Source: Botryllus schlosseri (lineage: Eukaryota). Taken from it: a stretch of 64,000 nt of DNA. The translations under genes and the position numbers were made by a program. The DNA lies in contig CM119371.1 in the NCBI GenBank assembly GCA_051294905.1, positions 7,504,001 to 7,568,000 on the forward strand, in the 5' to 3' direction. The notes below the pieces were generated by a model. It did no database searches, was not told where the DNA came from, and saw only the letters and a program-made list of their open reading frames with translations. This document shows, piece after piece, positions 11,287-56,327 of the stretch (the first letter of the stretch is position 1; each line of letters begins with the position of its first letter).

Positions 11287-12906
11287 CTATCTCTTCACAA
11301 ATATGGATGTGTAAATTTCAAAACATTGATCCACTTTTGGTGTCACTATTGTCCATTTATCTTGTGATATATCATACTTTTCGATTGTATGAGAGGTTTC
11401 GTAATCTGTTACTGCAAAAATCCACTTGTCAATGTGATACACAGAAACCCAACCGTGAGAAGCATTCATAGAAGATAATGAAGTCCACTGAGATGAAATA
11501 ACATCGTAACATTCTACGTTGTTGACTTTCATTCCTGGTGTCCACCCGCCGATCACAAATATCTTTTGATCAACTGCAACAACGCCACTCCCACGTACAC
11601 GATATCTCATTGGTTCGAGATCAACCCACTCTGATGAGGATGAAGTGAATCTGCAGAATGATGAAACTATGACATCATCTTGTCCTCTACCTCCGATACA
11701 ATAGATGGAATCATTCAACGATACGAGACTTCCATCATATATCGCTGTAGGTTTGTCTTTCAGTTGAAACCATTGATTCACAGGGGAAGTAAATATTTCC
11801 ACATCACTCGTTGCTTTACTATAACTTCCTCCAACAACGAATATCGATCCTGACAAAAAAACTGAGCGAGGATTACTTCCATGATCACAAATCATATCTT
11901 TCACCCTTTCCCATTTTGAATTTTTGCTCTGAAAATTGAGTCGATGAACTGATTTATTCCAACATAAGACGTAGATGTACGAGTCCAGACAAATCGGTGA
12001 AAACTGTGTTAAATTCCTAAACTTTTCCTCGTGAAACTTCTCTAGTTTCTCAGTTACTGGATTGAAGGATCTGATACAATCTGCCTGATTGTCAAAGAGA
12101 ATTATCAATTCATCTCTGCTGATTTCTTCGTTTGTTTTCTGTGATGCTTTTAACAGATGTCGAGTGATCAACTTGTACAGTCCGAAGTCGTTACTGATAA
12201 TTTGGTTTGATTCCAAAAGACGTTTTAAAAATGCCGAAGAGACTTTATCAAACTTGATCGCTTCAAGACATTCGTGCAAATGTTCCTGATTTTTCCGATT
12301 TTTCTCGACCCAATTGAACAATAACGTTAGTTTTTCTTCTTCGCATAATTTTGATTGTTCCAACTTCACAAAATTCTGGATGTAAGTTTTTTCAATATTT
12401 CCAAATTCGGGCTGGTTTGAAATTTCCATGATATTTTCATGGAAAAATGTTCTACATTGCGTAGAGATGACATCCAGTCCATACATATCGGCGACATTTC
12501 TTGCAGAGAAGTAATTCTTTACATTAAGTGTTTCCTCCAAAATGTCAGATACTGCCTGTTTCACGTCTTCCAACTGCATCATGATTGCAACATGAAGAAG
12601 ATCATTCATCTTTTCATCAGGAATCTCAAATTTGCCGGAATATATGAAATCGATGCAGTTTTTCACACACTGAGAATCAACCTCTTTCAAAACGACTTTT
12701 CCTTCTCGACTCTCTTTAGTGTCGTTTTTCAACATGGCTTTGAAATAAGCAGAACCAGCCGACAATACATTTTTGTGAGAGCAATAGACATCATCTCCTA
12801 CTTGAATTATGAAATCACAATGATCGTTCTCCTGCTTCATTCGATGTAATTCTTCCATCATCTTCACTGAATGTTTCTCTACATTTGGACACACAATCTG
12901 CACCAT
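11287..12906 (-). CDS. BTB-BACK-Kelch (kelch-like) protein, paralog 1, 539 aa, intronless CDS
   Basis: BTB (CDFIIQV..HKNVLSAGSAYFKAML..FIYSG), BACK (LFNWVEK..IKF) and kelch repeats (IFVVGG, IYCIGG, IFVIGG..VECYD..QW). Confidence 0.95.
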   Translation of the reverse strand: MVQIVCPNVEKHSVKMMEELHRMKQENDHCDFIIQVGDDVYCSHKNVLSAGSAYFKAMLKNDTKESREGKVVLKEVDSQCVKNCIDFIYSGKFEIPDEKMNDLLHVAIMMQLEDVKQAVSDILEETLNVKNYFSARNVADMYGLDVISTQCRTFFHENIMEISNQPEFGNIEKTYIQNFVKLEQSKLCEEEKLTLLFNWVEKNRKNQEHLHECLEAIKFDKVSSAFLKRLLESNQIISNDFGLYKLITRHLLKASQKTNEEISRDELIILFDNQADCIRSFNPVTEKLEKFHEEKFRNLTQFSPICLDSYIYVLCWNKSVHRLNFQSKNSKWERVKDMICDHGSNPRSVFLSGSIFVVGGSYSKATSDVEIFTSPVNQWFQLKDKPTAIYDGSLVSLNDSIYCIGGRGQDDVIVSSFCRFTSSSSEWVDLEPMRYRVRGSGVVAVDQKIFVIGGWTPGMKVNNVECYDVISSQWTSLSSMNASHGWVSVYHIDKWIFAVTDYETSHTIEKYDISQDKWTIVTPKVDQCFEIYTSIFVKR

Positions 12907-13619
12907 GATTGTTGATCAACTACAGTATATAACTATCCTACGATTATTATAATATAGTCAAGCACTGTTATTGAAGTGAAGATGATTACAACTCAAGTAG
13001 GCCTAATGCCTGTTGATTGTTGAAAGAATCCCAATACGTCTATCAACGTCACGAGTATGAATTGAAGCAAATTCAACTACACACAAGGTGATCATGATTC
13101 ATGATCACTGAACAGTCCTACAAAGATTGGTTTCAAAAGAGCAGCAACACGAAATATCACGCTGATTTCACTCCGTGTTTGGAAACGAAATCAGCGAAGC
13201 ATGTAGCTTGTCAGCGTCATCTAACGGATAATTAGTTATTGCATTTGCAGTGTAGCCGTTACCAATGATATATATTTATCATTGCGGTTACTGACGGGTA
13301 AACCTTTTTCTATGAGTAATAGCTATTCATTTTAATAATATTTTCAACATTTTGAAACACCGCAATACTGCGACTAGGTGATGTAGAGAAGAGGCATGCA
13401 CGCACATTGAATGAAAAGTACAGCACAGAATATAAAAGACAAGCTAGACAAGACAAGCTAATACAATCTTTGAAAATATACCCATCATCATCATCATTGG
13501 TTTATTAGCAATTTTATCCGTCGTATACACCACAAAAAATGCGATACAATGAAAAGAAAGGAAGATGTCGAAGCGACTTGGAGTTGTCTATGGGATCGGA
13601 CACCCACCTCAGCCTAGGC

Positions 13620-14615
13620 CAGGGGTTCTCAGCCATTTCTTGGCCGTGGCCCATTTTCCGGTTTGAAAATGTGCTGTGGCCCACCTCTTATCCTAGATTC
13701 ATAATCCTGTTCAATGCATAGTTATCGACGGCGCCGATATCCTATTCCTCTAAAATATGCGCATTTTTCTCATAATTTACTGATGATATTTAAATATAGA
13801 CCTGTAAGACCATGAAATCGCGTGAAGGGGAATAATATAATTATTCTGGGTCCGCTTCAAACAATTTATTGGTGAATGGGGTACTACAGAGAACTGGAGA
13901 AAGATATATTCAATATGCATGCTGTACAATGCACATTGTATGTCTTGTACCAAACCAACTGCAGTTGCGATGTCGGAATATTCAATCCAATGATACAATC
14001 AATTCATGTCACTCTTACACTATGTACAATAATTTCCAGGGCGGGCATTTTGAACCGACTCCAAAGATTAATGCGCTCCGCTAAACCCACAATCCATTAC
14101 GATTTGTTATGGTGGTGCATATACCTCCACCAGAAGTTGCTAATAATTTTAAATTATGGCTATTTTTATCTCACAATCATACGACTTGCCATAGTACAGT
14201 AAATCTATACCTCAATTACCCTTCATTCCGAGTTTATTCCACACCCCTTTCAACGGCATACGACATATGACCATGCCGGAATACTTGGTTACTTCAGAAT
14301 TACCTTCCAGTTATTATATAGGCCTACTCGAAATTATTTCAATTGCTATTAGCCGTAGGTTGTCATAGCCATTGGAAAGAGCCGCTGTTTCTCCCTCCTG
14401 TTTTCGACTTGAACATGCTGACTCCATACGCGCCACAACGTCTCATCAGAGTCGGATGAAAAGCTTTACGTAGCCTATGTATAATCATTCGATAATATGA
14501 ATATATTTTTAGCGATTAATATAACAAAACTTACATTACCGTAATTCTAAAATTTTATAAATAGCTTTGTGGCCCACCTCAAATGCTCCTGTGGCCCACT
14601 CTTTGAGAACCCCTG
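13620..14615. mobile_element. hAT-Charlie-like MITE
   Basis: CAGGGGTTCTCA ... TGAGAACCCCTG, flanks GCCTAGGC/GCCTAGCA. Right flank matches the element-free paralog near 740. Confidence 0.75.
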
Positions 14616-16319
14616 GCCTAGCAGTTCATATCAAATCATAGTTCGTTCACATGAGCACGAGAATGGTCAGTGTATGTATCGCAAGCTTGGCTCGTTTCAG
14701 ACCATACAGTTCTTCTGTAAACTTTACAGTAAACCGGAAATTAGAATGGAACATTTCCCAAATTATATTAGAATTAGAGCAAGAAACATTTCACAGATTA
14801 GATTAGAGTCAGATTACTGGCATTTCCTCAAATTAGTCGAATAAGGCAATTAAAACTATCCAGTTATCCAAGTCTGTCAGGACCGTATAAGCCTTTTTGG
14901 GTCAATTGTTTGATTTGGCGGTCCGACTTGGATTGTTACTTGGGGCCTGCAGTGCGCTTCGCCCGGTCACTCGATGTCGGCAAAGTGAACAAGGCGCTTT
15001 CCGTAATGAGTTCTCCCTCGACAAATTTGAAATTTTGTCGCTGTCTGATTCCGTCGTCGTGACAACTTGCGACCCAGACAGGGGGTCTGGGGTTCGAATT
15101 TAACGAACTCTTCGTTTGACTGAGCCGCCATTCTTACTCGCTTTGAAACGTCGAACAGGACTGAGCCGGTTCACGTCCTCCTCGGTCTGCAAAAATACTA
15201 GGGGGTCAAGTCAATACTAGCATTGGAATCACGGGATCAACTCTACTGAAATCACGAGATATCGAGAAAGCATCTATCAGAGCTGTAGTAGCATTTACTT
15301 TGCTCTTAAAGCAGCGTTTCAATATCAGCTTACAGTCTTGAACACGCTACATTGCCTTGCCGATAATACCAACCATGGCACAACTATGAACTACACCAGT
15401 GGTTTCAAATCTTTTTTAAAACGGTACACCATTTTAAAGGTCACGCAAAACTTGTACCCCTCATTTAACAAAAATACATCGAATCCCTCGTAATGCTAAT
15501 CGGAAGGCGGCAATCCTTCGGAAACGCTAATGCTAAAAACTAATCAGCGGTCGAGATTACCACATCACGATCTAACAGTGGTTTTCAACGGCGGTCTACG
15601 AAACATTTTCAGGAAACCGGAAGCCGATCGAATAATCTAATTTGTGATATTGCAAGCTAGGGTAGACCATGTAAAGCAATTTTCCTTCTAATTGCTATAA
15701 CTTCATGGTTTACATCAGCCGAATGACCGTTTAATACAAGGTATTAAACCGCATCATGTGATATTAATTGCTTGCAAACCATTTAGTCAATGAGTAGAAC
15801 TATTGTTACAAACATTTTGCTGTTTAGAGCTGACATTGAGGTTTGTGTAAAAACTGCAAATTTGGAATAGAAAGGTCAAACAGAGTGATCATAATCAGAA
15901 ACCGCTTTAACGACGATATTCTCAGTGCTCTCACGATTTTGAGTCGGTATTACAATAATGTGACTTGCAAGTGTATATTTCTACATCGCTAATCTCAGGG
16001 TTGGGGAGTAAAAATCCGAATCGTCGGGTTTAAATTTTAATCCCTAAATCTGAACTCTTGTGAGGAATGACCCAAAAAAACTCACCATCTTCCGTGGGAC
16101 CCGCACTTATTCTGGTATCCTATCTTGAAAGAAAGACTGCACGGATGATAGAAATCAGAGCTTCTACTTTTCAGAGTTCTGTAACTAGATTTTGTCTACA
16201 TCTACAACCACCTCACCGCGGTCGGTTTTTATATTCTTCCACTTCTTCTTCTACAAATTTTTAGGAAAAACTAGTTGCTTGTTACACTTTGGATTTCGCT
16301 CGCAATCTTTTCACTAGGC

Positions 16320-17421: not shown

Positions 17422-17459
17422 CACTAGGCCCACAATACTTTATTTTTTTACTATTTGGA

Positions 17460-25138: not shown

Positions 25139-26758
25139 CTATCTCTTCACCAATACGGATTTGTAAATCTCAAAACATTGAACCACTTTTGGTTTCATCA
25201 TAGTCCATTTGTCTTGAGATAATTCATACTTTTCAATTGCATTAGAGTTTTCGAAATATGCTACTGCAAAAATCCACTTGCCAATGTGATAAGCAGATAC
25301 CCGACCATGACAAGCATTCATAGAAGATAATGAAGTCCATTGAGCTGAAGTAACATCGTAACATTCTACCCTGTCAATTTTCGTTCCTATACTCCAGCCA
25401 CCGATCACAAATATCTTCTGATCAACTGCAACAACACCACTCCCCCACACAGGATATCTCATGGGGTTGAGATCAACCCACTCTGACGAGGATGGAGTGA
25501 ATCTGCAGAATGATGAAACTATGCGATCATTTTTTCCTACGCCTCCGACACAATAAATGGAATCATTCAATGATACGAGACTTGTTAAACGAATAGCTGA
25601 AGGTTTGTCTTTCAATTGAAACCATTGATTCGCAGGGGAAGTAAATATTTCCACATCACTTGTTGCTTTACCATTGCTTCCTCCAACAATGAATATCGAT
25701 CCTGACAAAGAAACTGAGCGAGGATCAGATCCATGGTAACAAATCATATCTTTCATCCTTTCCCATTTTGAATTTTTGCTCTGAAAATTGAGACGATGAA
25801 CTGATTTATTTCTACATAAAACGTAGATGTATGAGTCTAGACAAATCGGTGTAAACACTGGTAAATTCCTAAACTTTTCCTCGTGAAACTTCTCTAGCTT
25901 CTCAGTTACTGGATTGACGGATCTGATACAATCTGCCTGATTGTCAAAGAGAATTATCAATTCATCTCTGCTGATTTCTCCGTTTGTTTTCTGTGATGCT
26001 TTCAACAGATGTCGAGTGATCAACTTGTACAGTCCAAAGTCATTACCGATAATTTGGTTTGATTCCAAGAGACGTTGTAAAAATGCCGAAGAGACTTCAT
26101 TAAATTTGATCGCTTTAAGACATTCGTGCAAATGTTCCTGATTTTTGCGATTTTTCTCAACCCAATTGAACAATAACGTTAATTTTTCTTCTTCGCATAA
26201 TTTTGATTGCTCCAACTTCACAAAATTCTGGATGCAAGATTTTTCAATATTTCCAAATTCGGGTTGGTTTGATATTTCCATGATATTTTCATGGAAAAAT
26301 GCTCTACATTGCGTAGAGATGGCATCCAGTCCATACATATCGGCCACATTTCTCGTAGAGAAGTAATTCTTTACATTAAGTGATTCCTCCAAAATGTCAG
26401 ATACTGCCTGTTTCACGTCATCCAACTGCATCATGATTGCGACATGAAGAAGATCATTCATCTTTTCATCAGGAATCTCAAATTTGCCGGAATATATGAA
26501 ATCGATGCAGTTTTTCACACACTGAGAATCGACCTCTTTCAAAACAACTTTTCCTTCGCGACTCTCTTTTGTATCATACTTTAACATAGCTTTGAAATAT
26601 GCACAACCAGCCGACAAGACATTTCTGTGAGTGTAATAGACATCATCTCCTACTTGAATTATGAAATCACAATGATCGTTCTCCTGCTTCATTCGATGTA
26701 ATTCTTCCATCATCTTCACTGAATGTTTCTCTACATTTGGACACACAATCTGCATCAT
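25139..26758 (-). CDS. BTB-BACK-Kelch protein, paralog 2, 539 aa, intronless CDS
   Basis: Colinear with paralog 1 without gaps, same domain motifs. Confidence 0.95.
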   Translation of the reverse strand: MMQIVCPNVEKHSVKMMEELHRMKQENDHCDFIIQVGDDVYYTHRNVLSAGCAYFKAMLKYDTKESREGKVVLKEVDSQCVKNCIDFIYSGKFEIPDEKMNDLLHVAIMMQLDDVKQAVSDILEESLNVKNYFSTRNVADMYGLDAISTQCRAFFHENIMEISNQPEFGNIEKSCIQNFVKLEQSKLCEEEKLTLLFNWVEKNRKNQEHLHECLKAIKFNEVSSAFLQRLLESNQIIGNDFGLYKLITRHLLKASQKTNGEISRDELIILFDNQADCIRSVNPVTEKLEKFHEEKFRNLPVFTPICLDSYIYVLCRNKSVHRLNFQSKNSKWERMKDMICYHGSDPRSVSLSGSIFIVGGSNGKATSDVEIFTSPANQWFQLKDKPSAIRLTSLVSLNDSIYCVGGVGKNDRIVSSFCRFTPSSSEWVDLNPMRYPVWGSGVVAVDQKIFVIGGWSIGTKIDRVECYDVTSAQWTSLSSMNACHGRVSAYHIGKWIFAVAYFENSNAIEKYELSQDKWTMMKPKVVQCFEIYKSVLVKR

Positions 26759-27173
26759 GATTGTCGATCAACTATAATTATCCTACGATTATTATAATAC
26801 ACTCAGGCACTTTTATTGAATTAAAGATGATTAGTTAACTCTAGTAATGCCTGTTGAAAGAATCCTAATACGTTTATCAACGTCACGAGTATGAATTGAA
26901 GGAAATTCAACTACACACAAGGTGAACACTGAACAGTGCTAAATCAGAGGCAACCCTGCCATAATGCAGTTATGAAACCTTCTTCCATCGATTTGCTTTA
27001 CACTTTTATTCGCTGTATTGACACGAAACCAAAGAGTTATTGCGGTCGATTACCACCACCTCGCGAATGATCGAGTTGATTATCGGTAATCTAAATTGTA
27101 TGTTGGAACATCGTCAAATAATTTCATATTGTGGTATATTCCAGGAGCGGTCGCATCTGCTTCATCCTCCAAC

Positions 27174-27771: not shown

Positions 27772-28875
27772 TTCCAACCGAATATCACAAAGATTGGTTG
27801 TAAAAGAGCAGCAACACGAAAGATCACGCTGATTTCACTCTGTTTGGAAACGAAATCAGCGAAGCATGTAGCTTGTCAGTGTCATCTAACGGATAATTAG
27901 TTTTTGCATTCGCAGTGTAGCCGTTACCAATGATATATATATTTATCATTGCGGTTACTGACGGGGTAAACCTTGTGCTATGAGTAACAGCTATTCAGTT
28001 TATTATTATTTTCAACATTTCGAAACAGCACAAGACTGCGATTAGGCGACGTAGAGAAGAGGCATGCACGCACACTGAATGAAAGTACAGCAGAGAATAT
28101 AAAAGGCAAGCTAGCCTGACAAATGGGTACAATCTTAGGAAATATATGCATTTACGATAGTCATGGGTCGAAAGAACAGTTCAAGTAGTAGTGGAAGTAA
28201 AATTTCAAAAGGTCACCATTATGGTATGTAGCGCAAATAAGCAAAACCTACAGGAGTAGTGCGACTAGGGCCAATCTTCAGTAATATATTCAGTTACGAT
28301 AAGTGGCTATTTTACGGGCTTCTTATGGCACTCATAAAAAATATCCAAATTATCCCAAAACTACTTTCTACTTTCCAAAACCCAAAGTGTGAAAAGTAGT
28401 TTGCATATAATCTGTTTAAGTAGTTGCTTCTACTAATGGCATAAAAAGACAGCTACTTCAGTACTTCCCAAAATTAGTAGTACTTGTTATAGACCCCATC
28501 TGGCAATATGTCCCTAACTTTGCGCAGGTTGACCAATATTATTGTCGTCATAGCAGTATCAATTTGAACGAGCTTTCGAACGCCTATAGCGGTGTGCTCC
28601 AGAAAAAAAAAAGTGGGGAAGATTATCTGCATCCGCCTGGACTCTCCATGACTGTAAAATCAGCATTCGTTGTGTACCCTTTATTTGATATTCATGTGTT
28701 GTTATAGTTTAGGCCTACCATACGTTGGGGTTGCCATACGTCCAGAATTTCCCGGACATGTCCGGAATATCACTGTTCAAACTGGCGTCCGGGAGGAATT
28801 CTGAAATATGCCAAAATGTCCGGAATTTTGAAGGCTTGAAATAGGATCAATTTTTGTTCGTAAATCAACATAAAC

Positions 28876-29289
28876 GAGAGAGATAGAGAGAGAGAGAGAG
28901 AGAGTCTTTATTTTCATTGAACCAAAATACATAACAAACGGCAGTGATGGTGGTACAGAAAATATGCTTCCACAGTATTCGGTATTAGATAGGAATGATC
29001 GATAAGACCGTGAAGGTCATCTAGTCTGATCACACCAGCATCAAACAGGTACACTTGACTCTGAACAGTCTGGCTGTAAAAAATGTTTAGTTAAGAAATG
29101 AAAACAGCAAAAAAAATCAAACAATGGTAGCAAATGATCAATGAAGCAATGTCTGGGCGAGGTAGGGCAACAGTGTTAGTGTAACGACAAGAGGTGGTCA
29201 AGTAGGGCTTTTTTGAATCTATTATAAGGCAATTCACGGATATGTGGTGGTAATGCATTCCAGATGATAAGTCCCGAGTAGTCGATAGC
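28876..29289 (-). mobile_element. 5'-truncated CR1/L2-group LINE 3' end with (TC)n tail
   Basis: Minus frame DYSGLIIWNALPPHIRELPYNRFKKALLDHLLSLH* (stop 29178-29176), the typical WNxLP C-terminal motif, followed by AATAAA and a TC microsatellite. Confidence 0.75.
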
Positions 29290-29300
29290 AGTGTTGGGAT

Positions 29301-29500
29301 CAGGGTTGTAATGACTCGAGTCATGACTCGACTCGAGTCAGACTCGAGTCACGTTTTTTTTTGTGACTCGACTTGACTCAAATCATTTTCTTGAAATGGG
29401 AAAATGACTCGACTCGAGTCAATATTTGGATTGACTCGACTTGTACTCGAGTCAATACGCATGACTCGACCCAAGTCAATGACTCGGCTTATTTTATATG
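29301..29500. mobile_element. Left end of GACTCGAGTC-rich MITE
   Basis: CAGGGTTGTAATGACTCGAGTCATGACTCG; right end not found. Confidence 0.65.
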
Positions 29501-29645
29501 ACTTGAAGATGAATAAATTTGCGAATGGTAATGGCTAGTTCAACACATCTGACGCATTCTGCCGACATCGCTATTTGTCACCACTGCTTTCGTTGCACTC
29601 GTCTGATATCAGATATGCCGTCGAAAAAACAACAGACAATGATAC

Positions 29646-30261: not shown

Positions 30262-32611
30262 ATGATACTATAGAAATTAAACATGGAACGGCAACGACCG
30301 ATTTTGCAGCTTCGTTCCGCTTCGCCGAGGCTGGAGTGGAGAGTTGTTTTGCGTAAGCGACTGTAGGATTTCTGGCATTCCAAAAGCTATCTTCCCGAGC
30401 GCAGAAATGAGAGGGTAAACCGAAATTGCAGTCACTAGAGGGCGCGCGTGCGACTGGTCCTTTGTTTACGTATCTACGACGACGACGCAAGAAGTGTAGT
30501 AGAGGTAGTATTGGAGTGGTAGTAGTGGAGTAGTTATAGTAGTAAAGTAGTAATAGAGGTAGTAGTGATGCCGTGTTGTTCTGTTCCCCGTTGCTCAAAT
30601 GCCGGCGGTCACCGATTTCCGACTCGCGTAGACACCAGAAAGAAGTGGAAGATTGAAGTGAAGTGAAGTAAAGTAAAAGTGAAGTAAGTGAAGTGAAGTA
30701 AAAGTCTCTGAGCTTAGGCAAAAGGTACTCCTTCCAAAATTTGTCATCATACTGCACTTCCTCGATCAATATGCACGGTTTTCCATTACAGGGGGTGTAC
30801 ACAATGAAGTAGCAAGCATCCCTCTTGCTTAGTGCCAGGCCTCCTTGTATTTGGCAGTAGTATGGGTGCGATATAGGCCTACGTAATGCCATTCTCCCAT
30901 CAGACCTGAACTCGAGGAATGAGAAGTCCTTCCCTGGTGCAGTATGGTTTTCACGGGCAGTGTATGGGCATTTAATTTCTATGGTGTGGGTAGACCCCAC
31001 TAACCCATCTGAAGTATCCCCAAGGTAGGGAAACGATGGCAATATCCAGAGACCTGACGAGTCTACAGTAACACACATCTCTTCCTCAAATGCCCGCCTC
31101 GCTATTGGCTCATAGGTCTTTCCATGAATAATTGGCTGAACTTTGAGTTTTTGGGGATTAAGGATGGTGCTACACAGAGAATGGAGATTACGTCGGGCTG
31201 TGAGATGGAAAATGGTGCCGAAGTGACTTGCTGTTAATCGCCATTCTCTGTGACGAAACCACAAACTGCTGTGGCTTTGTTGTCTTGTAGCAGACTGAAT
31301 CTGTTCGGCTTCTTTTTCTGTAATCTGGAAACAAAATAGACAATTTCATTAAAAAGAAACATGGTTACGAACAACTACCACTAGGCCTACTAGGAAAAGA
31401 AGCATCCCACCTTTAAAGAATAGTCCACCCAGTACTGTCTCCAGTCAATACCAAAATAATTATGATCATGAGTGGCTTCAAACAAATTTGCTTTTTTGTA
31501 CATGTGCCGCATCGGAAGGTCTTTGCCAGAAGAAAAGCAGAAACCAATGACTTGATTTCTGACATAATCATTATAGCCAGGCCAGTTTTGAAATTTTGAA
31601 GGTCGTGGATCCTCATCGTTCTTTTGGACAAACAGGTCTTGGCATTTAACCGGAGAAGCTGTAAATCCAAGAATTGTTACATTAAGTTTTGATCAAATCA
31701 TCTATATATATATAAATAACCTACTCTGAATCTTAGATAATAAACCTGTTTTTGATCATCTTTGTCTTACCTAAACGAAACTTGCGAGGCCTGTTAAAAG
31801 TCTGAAGAGCGTCAGTACAGCCGTTTGCAACCTTAAGTGCGCCTGACTCCTTGAAACATGCAAGCATCAAGAGAATGGCTGCAATATGCTTGCACGTACT
31901 GTGAAGACCGGCTCCTGCTGGGCATTCACACGCACTATTCTGGATTTCACCACTTGGCAGTAACGCAACTTTCACATTATAGGTGAGCTGAAAAAAACAG
32001 ACCTAAGTATTCTTGGCCTTTCATTAGTATTCCAACACAATGACTAACATCACTACGCATGGTTGCGCACACCAAGCCCGAGACAAAAAACTTGCGGTTG
32101 TTCTCAACGAAGCTGGCCACCACTACTCTTTCACTTTCTAAAAGATTTGCCCCTTTCTCAATGCCTTTGAGATCTGCACAGCATGATTTGTCTGAAACTA
32201 GTCTGTACCGGAAGTATCCGTCGATCAAATCCTTATTCACTGGAGGTACTGAGTGCTGGTGATCCTCACATATTTGGCTAAATCCTTCTTTTGGCCACTC
32301 CACAGGGTCTGGTGCTGGCAGGACAATTTGAGGTCCCCGGAAATCTTTGTTTCGGTCATAAGCTTCGAGTCTATGTAACAACAATGGAGTAGCTCATAAA
32401 TTTGATACGAGACAGACACACAGATGGACAGATGGCCGACTGCATGCAATTGTTTATATAAAACCCAGCTTAATTATAGTGGTGCGCATACCGCAGCAAC
32501 ACGCCCTACTTACCTTTCCAATAGTTGACTTTTCCGGCCAGATGTCTTCGCTCCACGTTTTTTCAATTCTTTACGGAGTTCTTGTAAAGTCTTTCCAGCA
32601 ATTTTACCCAT
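30257..32611 (-). CDS. SAP + SWIM + YqaJ/lambda-exonuclease-like protein (ISL2EU accessory gene), 5 exons, native C-terminus lost
   Basis: Phase-compatible GT-AG exons: 32611-32514 (SAP: LQELRKELKKRGAKTSGRKSQLLER), 32370-32049, 31987-31771 (SWIM: CECPAG..CKHIAA), 31658-31411, and 31324 onward (TRQQSHSSLWF..RLTAS..DGLV..EIKCP..YYCQIQG). Homology ends ~30700 and the frame reads through to 30257. Confidence 0.85.
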
Positions 32612-32741
32612 TACTAAATCATACAAGAACTGCGAACGTCGCTCGGGTACTGCTGATGTATGGAGTCACACGCAACTGCAACGCGACTGAAAGGACCAGA
32701 GCTCTCGATTCCACCAAGTGGTGACCGCAGTTTACCCTCTC
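30409..32741. mobile_element. ISL2EU (PHIS group) DNA transposon, internally deleted
   Basis: Perfect 12-bp TIR GAGAGGGTAAAC and 2-bp TSD AT (30407-8, 32742-3), confirmed against uninterrupted B copies. Carries a convergent THAP ORF and YqaJ exonuclease gene. Confidence 0.9.
30568..30666 (+). pseudogene. N-terminal THAP zinc-finger fragment of the ISL2EU transposase
   Basis: MPCCSVPRCSNAGGHRFPTRVDTRKKWKIEVK* matches the THAP CxxxxC..HxFP..RxxW signature. The DDE domain is missing. Confidence 0.85.
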
Positions 32742-33201
32742 ATTACTGAATCTGGTCTTGATCGAAAGCTACTGTTGCACCGATTCCGAAAATATAAATT
32801 AAAATAATGATCAGGCACTGATCCACCAAGAATCTGTCTTCCAAGTCTGAAATATCGGCATTGTCCAGAACAATCGGGTAACCGTAGCACAATGGCCATA
32901 ACAATGACCCGTTGCGACTCTCCGATTGTTCGAACAATGCCGATATTTTAGACTTGGAGGACGGATTCTAGGTGGATATGTGCCTGATCATAATTTTAAT
33001 TTATATTTTCGGAATCGATGCAACAGTAGCTTTCGATCAAGACCAGATTCAGTAATTTCTGCGCTCGGGAAGATAGCTTTTGGAATGCCAGAAATCCTAC
33101 AGTCGCTTACGCAAAACAATTCTCCACTCCAGCCTCGGCGAAGCGGAACGAAGCTGCAAAATCGGTCGTTGCCGTTCCATGTTTAATTTCTATAATGATA
33201 C

Positions 33202-33792
33202 TATGGAAATTAAACATGGAACGGCAACGACCGATTTTGCAGCTTCGTTCCGCTTCGCAGAGGCTGGAGAGGAGACTTGTTTTGCGTAAGCGACTGTAGG
33301 ATTTCTGGCAATCCAAAAGCTATCTTCCCGAGCGCAGAAATTATTGAATCTGGTCTTGATCGAAAGCTACTGTTGCACCGATTCCGAAAATATAAATTTA
33401 AATAATGATCAGGCACTGATCCACCAAGAATCTGTCTTCCAAGTCTGAAATATCGGCATTGTCCAGAACAATCGGGTAACCGTAGCACAATGGCCATAAC
33501 AATGACCCGTTGCGACTCTCCGATTGTTCGAACAATGCCGATATTTTAGACTTGGAGGACGGATTCTAGGTGGATATGTGCCTGATCATAATTTTAATTT
33601 ATATTTTCGGAATCGATGCAACAGTAGCTTTCGATCAAGACCAGATTCAGTAATTTCTGCGCTCGGGAAGATAGCTTTTGGAATGCCAGAAATCCTACAG
33701 TCGCTTACGCAAAACAATTCTCCACTCCAGCCTCGGCGAAGCGGAACGAAGCTGCAAAATCGGTCGTTGCCGTTCCATGTTTAATTTCTATA
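33202..33792. mobile_element. Foldback element B2 (591 bp)
   Basis: ~274-bp arms, ATGATAC on both sides. Right half appears identical to B1. Confidence 0.9.
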
Positions 33793-33799
33793 ATGATAC

Positions 33800-34301
33800 T
33801 ATGGAAATTAAACATGGAACGGCAACGACCGATTTTGCAGCTTCGTTCCGCTTCGCCGAGGCTGGAGTGGAGAGTGGTTTTGCGTAAGCGACTGTAGGAT
33901 TTCTGGCAATCCAAACCTATCTTCCCGAGCACAGAAATTATTGAATATGGTCTTGATCGAATGCCACTGCTGCACCGATTCCGAAAATATACAGTAAAAT
34001 ATTGATCAGTCACTGATCCACCTGGAATCCATCCTCCAAGTCGAAATATCGGCATTGTTCGAACAATCGGAGAGTCGCAACGGGTCATTGTTATGGTCAT
34101 TGTGTTGCGGTTACCAGATTGTTCTGAACAATCCCGATATTTCAGACTTGGAGGACAGATTTTAGGTGGATCATTGCCTGATCATAATTTAAATTTATAT
34201 TTTCGGAATCAGTGCAACAGTAGCTTTAACGGCAACGACCGATTTTGCAGCTTCGTTCCGCTTCGCCGGGGCTGGAGTGGAGAATTGTTTTGCGTAAGCG
34301 A
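33800..34301. mobile_element. Foldback element B3, spacer in opposite orientation, right arm rearranged and truncated
   Basis: Left arm intact. Right arm breaks at ~34227 and is followed by a second copy of left-arm sequence to ~34301. Confidence 0.8.
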
Positions 34302-34537
34302 TTCAGGGATATATAGAACTCCGGGATGACTGACTGCGTCAATTGCGTCATCGCGGTATTACCTAAGTGGGTCCAGATTCGCGCATTCAGTTTTGATGCA
34401 CGTTCCGTTCAGCCGCTTCATCTGTGTGTAATTTTAAGTTTCTGAGAGCGGTAGACGAGGCATATAATATCCATGTTTATGTTATTATATAAAGCTAGAG
34501 GTTAACTAGGTTATGAGATGTTCAGGTAGTCTGAAAC

Positions 34538-35128
34538 TATAGAAATTAAACATGGAACGGCAACGACCGATTTTGCAGCTTCGTTCCGCTTCGCAGAGGC
34601 TGGAGAGGAGACTTGTTTTGCGTAAGCGACTGTAGGATTTCTGGCAATCCAAAAGCTATCTTCCCGAGCGCAGAAATTCTTGAATCTGGTCTTGATCGGA
34701 AGCTACTGTTGCACCGATTCCGAAAATATAAATTTAAATAATGATCAGGCACTGATCCACCTAGAATCTGTCCTCCAAGTCTGAAATATCGGCATTGTTC
34801 AGAACAATCGAGTAACCGCAACACAATGACCATAACAATGACCCGTTGCGACTCTCCGATTGTTCGAACAATGCCGATATTTCAGACTTGGAGGACGGAT
34901 TCTAGGTGGATCAGTGCCTGATAATTATTTTACTTCATATTTTCGGAATCAGTGCAACAGTAGCTTTCGATCAAGACCAGATTCAATAATTTCTGCGCTC
35001 GGGAAGATAGCTTTTGGATTGCCAGAAATCCTACTGTCGCTTACGCAAAACGATTCTCCACTCCAGCCCCGGCGAAGCGGAACGAAGCTGCAAAATCGGT
35101 CGTTGCCGTTCCATGTTTAATTTCTATA
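34538..35128. mobile_element. Foldback element B4 (591 bp)
   Basis: Complete arms. Flanks CTGAAAC / GTTTCAT are not a direct repeat. Confidence 0.9.
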
Positions 35129-35231
35129 GTTTCATGCTCCAACCTACTGAGCTATATAAACAACCAAATATCATAAAGATTGGTTTTAAAAGAGCAGCAA
35201 CACGAAAAATCAGAGCAGGGTTGGTTCGATT

Positions 35232-35570
35232 ATGTTCACAATAAGAACAATTTTGTTCACAATAAGAACAGTCTCATGTTCACAATAAGGACAGTCATGT
35301 TCACAATAAGAGCAGTCTCATGTTCACAATAAGAGCAGTCGTTGTATTCACAATAACATCAGTCGCAGCACCACCATATCCCCTGGACACGATGTCCGAG
35401 TGGCAACATAGTCCGAACACAACCCAGACATGATGTCCGAACACCCCCAGACATGGTGTCCTAGTGTCAACGCAGTCCGAACACACCCCAGACACGATGT
35501 ACGAACGCCCCCCTTAAGACATGATGTCCGAGTATCAACGCAGTCCGGACACACCCCAGACACGATGTCA
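35232..35570. repeat. Two adjacent minisatellites
   Basis: About 6 copies of TGTTCACAATAAGANCAGTC(TCA) (~20-22 bp), then imperfect CAGACAYGATGTCCGA units. Confidence 0.8.
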
Positions 35571-36242
35571 TATCAAAGACTCGAAAATTGGTATCCGCAG
35601 CTATCCTGCTAGGCGCTCAGCAATCACGGACAGCATGGAGGAGAAAAAACTGGTGCGCAGACTAGATGACCTCACGGCCGTATCGCAAGTCCGTCGTCAT
35701 GGTCGCGTCGATGGTGCAGGCAAAGAAGAATATCATCTCTCTCCGCGATATACGGTTACATTCATATTTGATTATTATACTGCTATGCAAACGACGTTCG
35801 CTACCCTGAACATCAATGGAGCTTGCACTCATATTGTTGGACGATGAGAATTGTGTCGATAAATCTATGTTCATAGATTCAAATATTTCATTGCTGTAAC
35901 AGCACTTGAACTTGAAACATTGCAGATTTGCTGCATATGTGATAAAAGGCAACGATGTTGCCTAAACTACGGGTATTATTGGTAAAATGTGGGGTGTTGT
36001 TCCCAGAAATTCGATCTTTAGCACGTTTCCGATTCCATATAATTTGCATATATATATCCATATAGGTGCCGTTCTTCCAGGTTGAAACAAATCATGTACG
36101 AATGAAATGGATGTCGCAGTCACTATCGATGCCGTGCACATATATGCCAAAGGATAGGCTACTTGATTACTTGGGGATCGTTTTGTATCGCATGTTGTTG
36201 TTGTTACCCATGTTGTTGTAACCGATGTGGCGGGCATAGGAC

Positions 36243-36657
36243 CAGTGATGGCTTTACGATTGGGGGGGGGGGCTGGGCGAAACTCAGGGGGCCCCCTATG
36301 TGTACGTAATCGAAGCTTCCCCGCCTTTCAATAATCACTACGGTTTCTATAATATTTTTTGGTAACATGTTTAGTCAAGAGTGTGGTTACAACCCAAAAC
36401 GCCTAAAAACTGCAGGAATTAACATTTCCTGGCAGTAAAATCTGTCATTTGCAGTAAACCATATTGGACTTTCAAACGAATGCAGAGAGTTGATGATTAA
36501 CCCATTTCTACGGTATCATAGGGATGGGTACAGCGGTACAGGGATTATCGCCGTTAATCGTCAAATGATAACGTTCGAAAAAAGCAAGTAGACGAAGAAG
36601 GGGGGCCCATCGAAAGCGAGGGGCGCCAGCGACCGCCCACTCCAAAAGCCACCTCTG
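36243..36657. mobile_element. hAT-like MITE (GGGCCC-containing)
   Basis: CAGTGATGGCTTT ... AAAGCCACCTCTG, perfect TSD CATAGGAC. Confidence 0.8.
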
Positions 36658-39600
36658 CATAGGACGTACATGTGCCAGCTATATAATCAAACAACTGTTA
36701 TAATAAATGACTCCAGATACTTTGCGTTATCAAATACAGCACCATCGATCGATGAAAAAATGCCTATGTCAAGCGTATTGACCAGTAATCATGATATATT
36801 TGTGGTTGATGCGAGGAACAATGGAATATTTCCCCAAGTCAATGTTCAGCGAACAATCTCGATATGATGACACAGGCAAGTTCCAGACGTTCATTATAGT
36901 TCAGCATCTGAATGCAGTGCAAATACTTATCGCCGTGTAAAGTGTAGCTGATCTCTTGTGCCCCTCGGCGTTTTCTGTGAAAATCATGTATTCGACACAT
37001 TGCATTTACCTACTTGTATATGAATGATTGTAATCATATCTTCGATTGCATTCGATTTTGTGAAATTGGTAACGGAATAAACGAACTTTTTGCAGCAAAA
37101 TATGATGATTTCTTCATGTAAAAAGGAAGGAGTGGCAGGGAGTCAGATTATTATCTACGTTTGCATCACTAATGGGCTAGTGAGATGACGAGGAAACTGC
37201 AAGGCTATCGAGTCTGTCGTTTGTCTGAACGAGCAATAAGATGTACGCTCTAACATTGCTCTATCAACTGCCTAGGAAGTTCAAGTAACACATATGTTTC
37301 GGTGTTAGTTCAAAATCCACCGCCCCGGTGCAATTTTCAATAGTCAGAGGTAATTAAATTCATTTCTACAGCAAACACAGAAGATAAACATTTGTAAAAC
37401 CGAGGTAATTTTTAACCCATCCCTGAACTACTCAATAAAGTGATAATATAACTATCGAATGGAAATAATAATGTAACTTAAGTGCGTGCAATATTAGTGG
37501 AAGCCGTCTACAAACCTAGTCGCCGGCAAGTTCGTAGTGCAAAAGAAGAAGATCTACCGAAGTATAGTCAAATTGGATGCAAAGGGCGGATTTTGATCCT
37601 ACTAGATATAAGGAAAAATGACAAACTGGCCATGAAATTCACTGTGGCCGGCCACGAGACAACGCTTTCGGGGCCGGCCACAGAAAAATCTGTGGCCAGT
37701 AAGTGGCCACTGGAAAGCGGAGACCCCTACTGACTCACCCAATGCTGCATCCTACCCTTGTAGCCGTGCTCTGTTTGCAAAATCACAGAAAAAAGGAGCT
37801 GACTAGTAGTCAATGACTACGCATTGTGAGCATACAGAATATAAATCCAAGAATAATGCATTCCCAACACCGTTACACAAGAATATCAAAACGCCGCAGG
37901 TAGCGTACCCCGAAATACGAGCAGCCTGAATGAACAGCGCGTTACCGTAACTAAAAGTTTGATTGACAGCGTTCCGGGAACTCAGCTGCGCTATTCGTAC
38001 TCAGTCGGTCCAGTAAAAATCTCCGAAAATAAGCGCGTTCATACCACCCCGAAAAACCAGATTTATTTCACATAGAGGGGTTCCGGTAAACATTTTCGAG
38101 AAATTTTATTCCCGGAACCCCGGTATGAAAAGGGCCAGTTGACCAAGTCTGTCTGGACCGTCTCCACCTTATTGGTACAAATTGTTTGATTTGGGGGTTC
38201 GATTTGGATTGTTACTTGTGGCCTGCAGTGCGCTTCGCCTGGTCACTAGATGTCAACAAAGTAAAGCAGGCGCTTTTTGTAATGAGTCCTCCCTCGAAAA
38301 TTTGAAATTTTTTCGGTGTCTGATTCCGTCGTCACGACAACTTGCGACCCAGGTAGGGGGTCTGGGGTTTGACTTTTACGAATACTTCGTTTGATTGAGC
38401 CGACACATTCTTCCTCGCTTTGGAACGTCGCACAGGATCGGGCCGGTTCACGTACTATTCGATCTGCAAAAATAGTAGGGGGTCAGTCAATACTAGTATT
38501 GGAATCACAGGATTTTAAGGTACATCTCTGATCCCGATCCCGGGTTTAACTGTATTGAAATACAGGGATACCAGGAAAGCATCTATCAGAGCTGAAGCGG
38601 CACTAACTCTGCTCTAAACGCAGCGTTACAATATCAATTAACCATCTTCAACACTTTACATTGCCGTGATAATAATACCAACTATGGCACAACAATAAAC
38701 TACGCCAGTGGTCTTCACTCGTTTTCGTAATCGTACATCATTTTAAAGATCACTCAAAACTTGCGCATCCCAGTTCACATAATACGTCGAATCCGTAGTC
38801 ATAGTGATCAGAAGGGATGGGTAAGGCTGCAATGTATTAGAAATTTGAATGTAAAAAACGAATCAGCGCTCTAGATTACCCGCTCACGGTATAACAGTGG
38901 TTTTCGACCGAGGTCTATGAAACATAAATATAATTTGTGATATTCGTATCTATAATTTTTGCTTCATAACTGCTAAAACTTGATGGCTTACATCAGCCGA
39001 TTGAGACAAGATATCAAACTTTCCAGACTCGTTTTGATTGCCCGCAAACCATTTAGTCAACCATTGTCACAAACATTGGGCTGTTTTGTTTAGGTTTAAG
39101 AAATAACTAAAAATTTGAAATAGAAGGGTCAAACAGAGTATCCATAATCAGAAATCGCGTAAGCGATGATATTCTCACTGCTCTCACGATTTTACGTCGG
39201 ATTACAATGAATGAATGGGGCTTGAGACTGTATATTTCTACATCACTGGGTTAAGGGGCAAAATACCTATCCTTGGTTTTAAATTTTAATCCAGGAATCA
39301 CAACCCTAGTCAATACACGCATGCATTCAGTGTGGGACGATCCCCATAATATCGGCATCTTTCGTGGGTACCGCACTCATTTTGGTAGCCCACAGTGAAA
39401 GAAAAATTGCACGGATGATAGGAATCTGATCTTCTACTTTTCAAAGTTCTTCAAGTAGGCTTTGTCTGCTTCTACAGCTACCTCAAGTGATTTAGTTTTT
39501 ATACTCTTACACTTCTACTTAATAGATTTTCAGGAAAAACTAGTTGCTTGTTCCACTTCACGTAGTGGGAATAATTTTTGTGATACTTGCAATTCTTACT

Positions 39601-40603
39601 CGAGTGGCAACAACTTCAAACTTACAGTTTTTTTCGGCAAACTAGGCCTACACTTCACTTATTTGGAGATTTCTACTTCTACTTGCACTGGAGTAGAAAT
39701 TTGCAACACTGCTTATCCTTTTATTCGAGTAGCGACGATGAATACTTTGACATCTGATCCTGAAACAGCAATGTCGATTCACCACCAACCCCAACCTCCA
39801 CACACCTATTTACATCGGGATCAATTGACTTTTCATATAGGCACCCGAACCAACGGTGGGACATGGGAAACTTCCTGTTGGATCACCCGCAGCTAGTAGG
39901 CCGACCTTTGACCAGTTGGGTGCCGTGCCGGAAATCCATCCCGAACGAGGTCGATGCTGGAATAAAAGGGGGGCAGTTTTTTTTCGGGCAACACGGAGCA
40001 AATTGTGACACTGACTCGATTACAATCAAAATTGTAAATACACAGTGTCTTCAAAATTAGATTATAAGTAAACTGATAGCTAAATATTATTTCCAAATGA
40101 GATTAGAAACAGAATTATATCTATATAGCGAACAGACTTTACCTATGTCCGAATTTGCTGGAAAACAGTGCACAATATTTACTGCATGATTTCTTTGACA
40201 AATCAGAATGAGTAAATGCTGGATGTAGGTGTAGGTACGGTGTAATAACTGGTGTGCCATGCGAAGAATAGCAAAATCTTACAAGAAATGACATAATGGT
40301 ATGGAAATCCATTCGATTTGCATTGCTTCATTTCACACTGATAGTGTCAACATTGCGGACAGGATGTTTGCTATATCCTACACCGTTGCCAATTCTGGAT
40401 ATGTTACAACAATTACACAGATACTCACCTGTAGAGTCATCACGATCTCGAAAATCTTGATGTGGAGATCTTGTTTTGTGGCAGTTGACAAGGTCTGAAA
40501 CAAAAACTCATTACAATGAATCAGGAAAGATAAGACTAGCACTGCTACTTCAATGTCATGTGGACAAAAGAACAGTAAATTATTATTAAAACCTTTCCAC
40601 TAG

Positions 40604-40932: not shown

Positions 40933-40994
40933 TCCACTAGTCACCTTGAACTGAATAGAGCACAAAAATGTCAAAATTGCTCTCTTAACGCATA

Positions 40995-41090
40995 GTCTTT
41001 TATATTTTATTGCCTTTTATGTACAGCGCCCCAGTGTAGTAATGATATATTGTTATATTCGGCGCTCTATAAATTATTATATTATTATTA
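40995..41090 (+). mobile_element. Short L2-like LINE/SINE 3' tail
   Basis: TGTACAGCGC...GGCGCTCTATAAAT followed by (TAT)n. Absent from the paralog near 18390. Confidence 0.5.
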
Positions 41091-46515: not shown

Positions 46516-47491
46516 GCCTTTTGTCGCGTCCTCTAACTACTCGCGTTCGAGCAATGCATTGCTGCTGATTTGCTCACGTGAGCAGCAGCATTACAAAATA
46601 CATTGCTTAATTCTAAATCGCACAATTTGTCGGTTACATGCGCAACGAAATTCTGGGTATGCTGCATACCCAACAAGATTGCTAGTTATGCGTGGCATGA
46701 TATCTGAGTTGAGCGCCTATTATGCATGATACGGGCGAATCCTCACGCTCTTAAAATACATATCTCCTGGGATGTGGCAAAACCAACCCAACTGTCTGCA
46801 CCGTCAGCGTATGTAGAATTCCAGGTTTCGAGAGTGTATTTAGTACAGATTTTTACAACCACTTACATGACTCATATCGACCATATCGATATTGAGTAAG
46901 GTACTAAATATATGATGGGGAACATGAAATAGAATTGTCGGCAGTATTACGCACTCCCTTACAAGTAATAAAGTATATTTCTCCCAAATTACTGGTTACT
47001 ATTGCTAGTACATTCATCAAATGATACGGATCCACCGAAGAGTAGTTTAAACATGACAGAATTTGAAAAATTGAACGTAAAGTTGTGCAGATTTGAAACA
47101 AAAGTAAATGCACAATCGTCAAGGCAATTATGATGGATATAGCTTGATGAATTGAAAATTGTAATTGTCATCCTCTTTGTTTTTATTCATATCTCAGCTG
47201 CACACTTGTACAAACTACTAATTTAGTTTGTTCATGGCCAAGAGTATTTCCATTTGCAAATTTTTGAGGCGTGTAGTTTGGCGTGAATAGTGATACTGGT
47301 GTTCTGTTATGTGACGTTCTCGCAGCTATTGCTAGCTCGAATTCAACACTGCTAACCAGGGCGTAGTTAGGGAGTGGGTTTTTGGGGTCGAAAATTGTCC
47401 CATTTCGAACTCTAAACCCCGTTATTTTCAAACACAGATTCTGTCTCCAACTCAGAGTAATTCGTGATGTGCTGCACTTGCTGAGTGCAGT

Positions 47492-49135
47492 CTATCTCTT
47501 CACAAATATGGATCTGTAAATTTGAAAACATTGGTCTGCTTTTGGTTTCACTATAGTCCATTTGCCTTGCGATGTATCATACTTTTCAATTGGATTAGGG
47601 GTTTTGAATTCTGCTACTGCAAAAATCCAATTGCCAATGTGATATGCAGAAACTCGACCATGACAATCATTCATAGAAGATAATGAAGTCCATTGAGATG
47701 ACGTAACATCGTAACATTCTACGTTTTCGAGCTGGCGCCCTCCACTCACCCCACCGATCACAAATATCTTTTGATCAGCTGCAACAGCGCCACTTCCCCA
47801 AACAGAATATTTTATTGGTTCGAGATCAACCCACTCTGATGAGGATGGAGTGTATCTGCAGAATGAAGAAACTATGACACCATCTCGTCCTTCACCTCCG
47901 ATACAATAGATTGAATCATTCAATGATACGAGACTTGCATCAGATATTGCGGTAGGTTTATCTTCTAGTTGAATCCATTGATTCACGAGGGAAGTAAATA
48001 TTTCCACATCACTCGTTGCTTTAGGACCGCTTCCTCCAACGACAAATATCGATCCCGACAAAGAAATTGCACATGGATACTGTCCATGGTCACAAAGCAT
48101 ATCTTTCATCCTTTCCCATTTTGATTTTTGCCTCTGAAAATTGAGTCGGTAAACTGATTTCCCCTGGCATAAAATGTAGATATACGAGTCCAGAGAAATC
48201 GCCGAGAATTGTTTCAAATTCCTAATTTTCTCATCATGAAACTTCTCTACTTTCTCAGTTACTGGATGGAAGGATCGGATCAAATCTGCGTTATCATCAA
48301 AAAGAATTAACAATTCATCTTTGCCAATTTCGTCGTGTATTTTGTGCGTTGCTTTTAAAGTTTTCAAAAGATGTCCATTGATCAGCTTGTACAGTTCTAA
48401 GTCATTGCTGATAATTTGGTTTGACTCCATAAGATGTTCTAAAAATGACGGTGAGACTTCATCAAACTTGATTGCTTCGAGACACATTTGCAAATGTTCC
48501 TGATTTTTTTGATTTTTTTCAACCCAATTAAACAATAATCCTAATTTTTCTTCTCCACATAACTTCGATTTTTCTGACTTCACATAATTGAGGATGTTAG
48601 TTTTTTCAGTATTTCCAAATTCAGGTTGGTTTGATAGTTCCATGATATTTTCATGAAAAAATGCTCCACATCGGGTAGAGACGGCATCCAGTCCATACAT
48701 ATCGGCGACATTTCTTGTGGAAAAGTAATTCTCTACAGTAAGTGATTCCTCCAAAACGTCAGATACTGCCTGTTTCACGTCATCCAACTGCATCATGATT
48801 GCGACGTGAAGAAGATCGTTCATCTTTTCATCAGGAATCGTAAATTTGCCCGAATATATGAAATCGATGCAGTTTTTCACGCACTGAGAATCGACCTCTT
48901 TCAAAACAACTTTTCCTTCCCGACTCTCTTTTGTATCGTGCTTTAACATAGCTTTGAAATAAGGACAACCAGCCGACAATACATTTCTGTGAGTGTAATA
49001 GACATCATCTCCAACTTGAATTATGAAATCACAATGATCGTTCTCCTGCTTCATTCGATGTAATTCTTCCATCATCTTCACTGAATGTTTCTCTACATTT
49101 GGACACACAATCTGCACCATGATTGTCTCATTCAT
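47492..49135 (-). CDS. BTB-BACK-Kelch protein, paralog 3, intronless CDS
   Basis: Same architecture with a 3-aa linker insertion. The Met homologous to the starts of paralogs 1 and 2 is at 49120 (MVQIV). Confidence 0.95.
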   Translation of the reverse strand: MNETIMVQIVCPNVEKHSVKMMEELHRMKQENDHCDFIIQVGDDVYYTHRNVLSAGCPYFKAMLKHDTKESREGKVVLKEVDSQCVKNCIDFIYSGKFTIPDEKMNDLLHVAIMMQLDDVKQAVSDVLEESLTVENYFSTRNVADMYGLDAVSTRCGAFFHENIMELSNQPEFGNTEKTNILNYVKSEKSKLCGEEKLGLLFNWVEKNQKNQEHLQMCLEAIKFDEVSPSFLEHLMESNQIISNDLELYKLINGHLLKTLKATHKIHDEIGKDELLILFDDNADLIRSFHPVTEKVEKFHDEKIRNLKQFSAISLDSYIYILCQGKSVYRLNFQRQKSKWERMKDMLCDHGQYPCAISLSGSIFVVGGSGPKATSDVEIFTSLVNQWIQLEDKPTAISDASLVSLNDSIYCIGGEGRDGVIVSSFCRYTPSSSEWVDLEPIKYSVWGSGAVAADQKIFVIGGVSGGRQLENVECYDVTSSQWTSLSSMNDCHGRVSAYHIGNWIFAVAEFKTPNPIEKYDTSQGKWTIVKPKADQCFQIYRSIFVKR

Positions 49136-56256: not shown

Positions 56257-56327
56257 TTTACCTTTGAAGGCGAAGCTTGTGTGAGGTCCATTGCAATAGA
56301 AGACTCGTCGGTAGTTTGTGGTGAATT

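Follow-up and report, generated by a model that had tools for sequence, protein, structure and literature searches.

Diversifying selection on the predicted substrate-binding face of tandemly arrayed BTB-BACK-Kelch proteins in Botryllus schlosseri

The 64,000-nucleotide stretch of the Botryllus schlosseri genome considered here (C1:7504001-7568000, the window) carries three neighbouring BTB-BACK-Kelch genes that pose a simple question: why should copies of one gene hold the first half of their protein nearly constant and vary the second? All three lie on the minus strand as uninterrupted frames in the open reading frame (ORF) list of the window (11287-12915, 25139-26767 and 47492-49144; window numbering is used wherever no contig is named), are intronless, and encode proteins of 539-542 residues with a common conserved start, MVQIVC. 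Counted from this start, residues 1-295 contain 20 differences between paralogs 1 and 2 and the 244 residues from 296 to 539 contain 52, in agreement with the ~20 in the first ~298 and ~50 in the last ~241 of the original prediction, a by-eye reading of these letters whose six quoted motif triplets are likewise all present in the translations. The contrast is weaker for the pairs with paralog 3 (54/295 vs 64/244 and 50/295 vs 70/244), in which BACK has diverged too and uniform conservation is limited to the BTB domain. Across the array of which the window forms the right edge, the scaffold (BTB, BACK, propeller strands and lower-face loops) is under purifying selection, with a ratio of nonsynonymous to synonymous divergence (dN/dS) of about 0.2-0.35, and about 15 upper-face positions in the BC and DA loops of the kelch propeller are under strong diversifying selection (omega ~5) at ordinary synonymous rates.

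Domain matches and modelling support for these proteins a BTB-BACK-Kelch architecture like that of Cullin-3 adaptors. BTB (PF00651) is present in all three window proteins (E 1e-21 to 5e-22), followed by BACK (PF07707, E 4e-13 to 1e-12), and paralog 1 matches BTB at 1e-21, BACK at 4e-13 and Kelch_1 at 1e-25. An AlphaFold2 model of paralog 1, made from a 47-sequence alignment (mean predicted local distance difference test score 88.5), shows by DSSP a BTB fold, a helical BACK region (residues 132-254) and six four-stranded blades, blade I being closed by the C-terminal strand 530-538. Foldseek retrieves the KBTBD2-CUL3 and KLHL22-CUL3 complexes at full length (E 1e-31 to 1e-29), and KLHL12, KLHL3, KLHL2 and KEAP1 for the kelch domain, with template modelling (TM) scores of 0.81-0.87. 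The four antiparallel strands of a blade put its BC and DA loops together on one face, opposite the AB and CD loops. The loop classes were set from the DSSP strands ahead of the selection analysis (BC 48, DA 60, AB 10 and CD 29 codons), and the assignment of sites to a face rests on this strand topology and on homology to KEAP1. In the solved KLHL structures, as described in section 17 of PMC3597819, DA and BC loops shape the substrate pocket, which is found on the upper face.

Variation along the protein follows the blades. Amino-acid entropy among 45 array copies peaks at intervals of ~47 residues, directly behind the GG doublets and directly ahead of the following blade, while the framework of GG doublets and blade tryptophans is invariant in 42-45 of the 45 copies; the hot positions and selected sites carry 7-15 residue types. 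The BC loop of blade V (paralog 1 residues 453-463, window ~11518-11550) is of variable length too (10-19 residues, mode 11), so that the repertoire changes by insertions and deletions besides substitutions.

Codon site models were fitted to 277 kelch codons of 40 copies, taken from a 48-row codon alignment (two broken copies left out) by removing three copies from outside the array, one with an internal stop and four near-duplicates. The likelihood program was custom-written, with F3x4 frequencies and with IQ-TREE branch lengths (general time-reversible plus gamma, GTR+G) fixed up to scale. The log likelihoods (lnL) are -13682.8 for M0, with omega 0.575, -12994.0 for M1a and -12763.8 for M2a, which places 5.8% of codons at omega 5.07; M7 gives -13024.4, M8a -12990.0 and M8 -12776.2, with 5.9% of codons at omega 4.6, values to be read in the knowledge that under the Nelder-Mead optimiser the beta shape parameters of M7 and M8 stayed near their start and may not be fully converged. 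Twice the log-likelihood difference (2ΔlnL) is 460 for M2a over M1a, 497 for M8 over M7 and 428 for M8 over M8a. Fifteen sites have an M2a posterior above 0.95 (274, 297, 316, 344, 345, 363, 407, 413, 439, 455, 458, 459, 486, 502 and 530). Nine are in BC loops, five in DA loops and none among the 39 AB and CD codons, the last, 530, being the first residue of the closing strand and adjoining the last DA loop; sites 458-459 lie in the length-variable blade V BC loop. The enrichment of selected sites in BC and DA loops (14:1 against 94:168) has a Fisher p of 1e-5. A separate array at C1:35.9-36.1 Mb repeats the pattern, its six copies having a dN/dS of 1.92 at the same 15 sites and 0.40 over the remaining kelch codons. 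What had been proposed from the three window genes, namely that changes cluster after GG motifs and between blades, that they co-localise on the BC/DA face of a predicted propeller, and that the loop sites evolve faster than neutrality, is thus borne out by the periodic entropy peaks, by 14 of 15 sites falling in those loops, and by the preference for M8 over M7.

Could the loops simply be unconstrained, with gene conversion keeping the remaining gene uniform? Conversion does occur: N-terminal and kelch trees disagree, and the copies at C1:7059284 and C1:7551495 differ in 16 codons, all within the first 113. Conversion would, however, lower synonymous divergence (dS) in the homogenised parts, and this is not seen. 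Nei-Gojobori (NG86) estimates over all 990 pairs of the 45 array copies give a dS of 0.267 for BTB, 0.310 for BACK and 0.276 for kelch, at dN values of 0.046 (dN/dS 0.17), 0.109 and 0.147, so that kelch dN is threefold that of BTB; since dS is alike in BTB and kelch, the contrast is not accounted for by 5' gene conversion, and the kelch half shows no rise in synonymous divergence, as the original prediction needed. By class, tree-free dN/dS is 1.22 in BC loops, GG doublets counted in, with dN above dS in 73% of pairs, then 0.61 in DA loops, 0.34 in AB and CD loops, 0.30 in strands and 0.26 in BTB-BACK, and dS is 0.25-0.35 in every one of these loop, strand and BTB-BACK classes. A dN/dS of 1.83 on columns picked by their entropy was set aside as evidence, the choice being circular. 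Recent near-identical pairs have nonsynonymous to synonymous changes of 20:8 in kelch and 15:18 in the N-terminal half, a contrast that is suggestive, the changes being too few and confounded by conversion tracts. Nor does recombination reproduce the size of the signal. With kelch cut into three segments, each on its own tree, 2ΔlnL is 175, 96 and 122 and the same sites are recovered, whereas three null simulations gave 3.8 under M1a on the family tree, and 12.0 and 17.4 (omega2 1.5-1.6) under the extreme of six tip-shuffled segments with one tree re-inferred. An alpha-beta grid that admits synonymous-rate variation gives, for the full model against beta ≤ alpha, 2ΔlnL of 165 for kelch and 27 for the N-terminal half, and 12 of the 15 sites keep a beta of 3.7-10 at an alpha of 0.5-1.0; of the grid's own site calls, which are too permissive with 58 kelch sites passing a posterior of 0.9 and alpha often at the lower grid bound, only those with beta ≥3.7 were used. 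With omega 1 rejected by M8 over M8a, the non-adaptive account is largely refuted and we consider it very improbable. It is at least as hard to see hypervariability as an artefact of misaligned loop indels or of assembly duplicates. The blade V BC loop of variable length does contain sites 458-459, one pair of copies is 100% identical and identity exceeds 98% in four pairs; against this, 12 of the 15 sites stand in ungapped columns between invariant residues, the near-identical copies (four of 44) were dropped before the site models, and the pattern recurs in the second array, which makes such an artefact highly unlikely.

The family behind this signal is large and confined to one lineage. An intronless HSP70 encoded in the same genome has 97% and 95% identity to two Botryllus schlosseri HSP70 entries and 82% to a Styela clava protein, which places the genome in B. 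schlosseri or a very close relative, a colonial ascidian. A six-frame search of the 495-Mb assembly with paralog 1, in which the best 80 of 539 candidates were scored, returned hits all with E < 1e-207, and a second search with a 58%-identical member, in which the best 81 of 555 were scored, added 20 places. Together they define at least 100 places, mainly on contig C1 at 6.5-7.6, 13.8-15.7 and 35.9-36.2 Mb. The main array holds at least 52 copies over 1.01 Mb (C1:6,543,403-7,553,125) at a median spacing of 17 kb; of the 52 copies listed, 48 are on the minus strand and seven have internal stops or have lost part of the gene. Beyond the animal's own genome, three full-length relatives at 45-54% identity are all that appear among 1.84 billion representatives, together with a few fragments at 37-44% and others at no more than 33%; a word-based search names a single relative, a KLHL10-like protein at 20% identity, and the look-alikes in the ESM Atlas are generic BTB-BACK-Kelch clusters bearing many different KLHL and KBTBD names. 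This is a lineage-restricted tandem expansion with pseudogenes, of the birth-and-death type.

Several copies document recent events in the arrays. The coding sequences of L037 (C1:6706739-6708952) and L038 (C1:6851576-6853789) are 100% identical though 145 kb apart, and identity in three more pairs is 98.8-99.1%. Either segmental duplication within the array has been very recent or the assembly has duplicated the sequence. L002 (C1:6913040-6917554) lies 600 kb away from paralog 1. From residue 38 on the two are 98% identical; in L002 unrelated sequence takes the place of the first 37 codons, and the frame is open over 584 residues. The few positions at which it departs from paralog 1 cluster at residues 438-485, in what looks like a short conversion tract.

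The selected positions can be placed against a known pocket. In an HMMER alignment to the KEAP1 chain, numbered so that chain index minus 7 matches the published residue letters, paralog 1 R407 pairs with Tyr525, D411 with residue 530, R438 with Ser555, G439 with Ala556, W455 with Tyr572, K460 with Phe577, G485 with Ser602 and W486 with the residue after Ser602; as HMMER aligns the blades in shifted register, these pairs are blade-equivalent positions and not a one-to-one superposition. Tyr525, residue 530, Ser555, Ala556, Tyr572, Phe577 and Ser602 are among the NRF2-pocket residues of KEAP1 listed in PMC6891428. Selected sites therefore appear to lie at or beside positions equivalent to KEAP1 pocket residues, several of them being aligned. 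The BTB-BACK-six-blade-kelch build is common to the Botryllus proteins and the vertebrate KLHL/KBTBD adaptors (KEAP1, KLHL12, KLHL3, KLHL22 and KBTBD2). The Botryllus proteins differ in being ~20% identical to these and compact at 539 residues, and in being encoded by intronless genes in ~100 tandem copies (at least 100 places), and their pocket residues are under diversifying selection where those of the vertebrate adaptors are under purifying selection.

The closest parallels are expansions in other lineages. Nematode F-box and MATH-BTB proteins and grass MATH-BTB proteins form lineage-specific tandem receptor expansions in which a conserved cullin-docking module is joined to a positively selected substrate-binding domain. 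With these the Botryllus family shares tandem growth, a conserved docking module and a selected receptor domain, and the same pattern, purifying selection on the docking module and positive selection on the substrate-binding surface, holds for the Botryllus array; it differs in that the recognition domain is a kelch propeller instead of MATH or FTH/FBA, that the host is a chordate, and that the selected sites are periodic on a repeat propeller. TRIM5 and the fish finTRIM proteins have hypervariable B30.2 surface loops, positively selected among paralogs. They too join a recognition domain with variable, selected loops to an E3 ligase, that ligase being of the RING type with B30.2, whereas the Botryllus family is of the cullin-adaptor type with a kelch propeller. 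In the termite Zootermopsis nevadensis a KLHL10-type BTB-BACK-Kelch expansion has reached 37 genes, against 10 in another termite, and is discussed in connection with male fertility (PMC4348803). As in Botryllus the same domain architecture has grown in one lineage; site-level diversification is absent from the sections of that account consulted, and the kinship of the two families is one of architecture only.

Taken together, we read the three genes and their array as a Cullin-3-type receptor repertoire with diversified kelch pockets that would be engaged in genetic conflict, to which we give a probability of about 0.7 on sequence and modelling evidence. By homology each protein of this intronless, lineage-restricted family, which would evolve by birth and death in tandem arrays, would be a Cullin-3-type substrate adaptor whose constant BTB/BACK module dimerises and docks the ligase and whose six-blade propeller holds a substrate on its upper face. 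As the pocket sites are diversified, the copies would each differ in the substrate pocket they offer, which would make of the array a ubiquitin-ligase receptor repertoire tracking diverse or fast-changing protein ligands, that is, a genetic conflict.

A number of observations weigh against this reading. Cullin-3 docking is proposed from homology. Its contact elements are the α3-β4 loop of the BTB domain, with the motif hydrophobic-x-Glu, and the 3-box groove; in the alignment to KEAP1 this loop reads Thr63-Lys64-Glu65, and Thr and Glu are at least 90% conserved in the family alignment A2, so that a Thr occupies what would be the hydrophobic position, another difference from the vertebrate adaptors. 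The site models come from custom code with fixed relative branch lengths and possible non-convergence, and the null simulations are few. The disagreement of the trees and the conversion tracts in recent pairs show that recombination is real and that the single-tree assumption is violated. The DA loops as a whole class lie below 1. In a young subfamily of five copies (L055 and L063-L066, C1:14.77-15.18 Mb), which are 93-96% identical and have their own C-terminal tail, the loops are nearly uniform and BC, still the highest class, has a dN/dS of 0.98, so that pocket diversification does not follow every duplication burst. The N-terminal half also gives a 2ΔlnL of 57, with 3.1% of codons at omega 3.2, above the simulated background though eight times below the kelch value. 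Finally, when RNA reads were mapped to window positions 8000-16000 (three raw-read runs and one contig set), the three bulk runs, whose tissues are given as codes, reached a depth of no more than ~4 over the paralog 1 region, mostly at the conserved BTB end, and the reads there differ from the window at fixed positions, which suggests an origin in other paralogs or alleles. A look-up of indexed RNA sets for 10500-13600 listed none.

The N-terminal sites with a posterior above 0.95 are residues 7, 79, 204, 211 and 235 (window ~12886, 12670, 12295, 12274 and 12202), of which residue 7 is just past the start and three are within the BACK domain; the five may be real additional selected sites or the background of method and recombination.

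If a repertoire of this kind is in conflict, with what? A conflict within reproduction is one possibility that we hold tentatively: a KLHL10-like, gonad-expressed expansion could be driven by sperm competition, by germline stem-cell competition between fused colonies or by selfish germline elements, and not by pathogens. Consistent with it, the sole named relative in the word-based search is KLHL10-like, a contig annotated as Kelch-like protein 10 is among the most up-regulated genes of fertile B. schlosseri colonies in a table of PMC4523013, the InterPro set BTB+BACK+Kelch is enriched among fertile-colony genes (3/188 and 5/200, the latter with p 5e-6) in supplement files 1, 4 and 11 of that study, the termite KLHL10-type expansion is treated under male fertility (PMC4348803), and the depth in the three bulk RNA runs is low. 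Yet 20% identity does not establish KLHL10 orthology, the fertile-colony contigs are known by annotation, and coded tissues limit what the low depth can say. The other candidate is intracellular defence, in which the pockets would catch viral, parasite or transposon proteins for ubiquitylation, as has been proposed for the nematode F-box and MATH-BTB proteins. Host-parasite conflict predicts features of just this kind, namely a constant adaptor with a variable receptor, birth-and-death arrays and, on the binding face, an omega well above 1, and the arrays sit among many transposon remnants; germline conflict, however, predicts an identical sequence pattern, and we hold defence slightly more tentatively still, the two standing as near-equal candidates. 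The original prediction, which saw diversifying selection against foreign proteins, is as a whole partly supported: a diversifying receptor repertoire is supported by the site models, the loop classes and the second array, and foreign proteins are one of these two candidate targets, circumstantial signs pointing to the germline at least as strongly.

Within the window, the paralog 1 coding sequence occupies 11287-12906 on the minus strand (539 codons and a stop, no intron). Its constant BTB/POZ domain is at 12529-12843 (Pfam, residues 25-129), its BACK domain with the 3-box region at 12214-12504 (Pfam residues 138-234, helices in the model) and its six-blade propeller at 11293-12111 (residues 266-538 from Met1, from the DSSP strands of the model), all likewise on the minus strand. 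Paralog 2 (25139-26758, minus strand, 539 codons and a stop) encodes a protein 87% identical to paralog 1. Paralog 3 (47492-49120, minus strand), with which the array ends on its right side, has 542 codons and a stop from the family-conserved start at 49120, the end coordinate 49135 of the original prediction being an upstream in-frame ATG, and is 78% identical to paralog 1. Upstream of paralog 1 a block at 13120-13480 (minus strand) shares 89.6% identity with 27787-28146 (blastn against the window); it belongs to the duplication units of paralogs 1 and 2 and is possibly a 5' untranslated region or a promoter. At 9869-10135 and 13340-13606 the reads and contigs of all four RNA sets pile up to very great depth. 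Nearly all the reads fit only partly and continue into unrelated sequence, so that both intervals are high-copy repeats found in many transcripts or loci; the second precedes the start codon of paralog 1 by ~450-700 bases.

Mobile sequences surround the genes. Between paralogs 2 and 3, a 362-residue frame at 30257-31345 on the minus strand matches a YqaJ-like viral recombinase/exonuclease domain (Pfam E 1e-11) within a G+C-richer stretch (0.42-0.44, 28000-40000) whose neighbouring frames have no Pfam match; several copies of a ~260-bp repeat (32850-35041) and a 64-bp tandem repeat (35380-35569) lie nearby. The frame probably belongs to a DNA transposon or virus-like insertion, by which the spacer between these paralogs would have been lengthened. 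Just past the last kelch gene, 51944-57557 (minus strand) holds a degenerate retrotransposon of the long interspersed nuclear element (LINE) type, with Exo_endo_phos, reverse transcriptase (two overlapping frames) and RNase H on successive shifted frames, which indicates that the element is frameshifted. Eight further ORFs of the window have no Pfam match.

In the full texts searched, a scope that leaves most subscription journals outside, no description of a hypervariable or positively selected BTB-Kelch array in tunicates or elsewhere was found, nothing on such an array is found for Botryllus and kelch, and no chordate cullin-RING array of such a type was found. What appears to be new here is the kelch-propeller version and the chordate host, the principle being already known from the F-box and MATH-BTB proteins of nematodes and plants. 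With some hundred natural versions of a single propeller pocket, all built on the same constant scaffold, the array provides a system for questions of kelch specificity, and the overlap with positions equivalent to the NRF2 pocket of KEAP1 makes ligand-fishing and loop-swap designs straightforward. Its members are also candidate genes for intracellular immunity or germline conflict in Botryllus, whose allorecognition and stem-cell parasitism are subjects of research. On a far-reaching and rather unlikely view, this colonial chordate, which has no antibody-type immunity, would possess a germline-encoded repertoire of ~100 or more intracellular receptors on a Cullin-3 scaffold, with kelch pockets resembling antigen-binding loops, that recognises and destroys non-self or selfish proteins inside cells. 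If that were true, the targets could include proteins of parasitic stem cells, germline or somatic, that enter once colonies have fused, and the array would be a cell-autonomous arm of Botryllus self/non-self biology.

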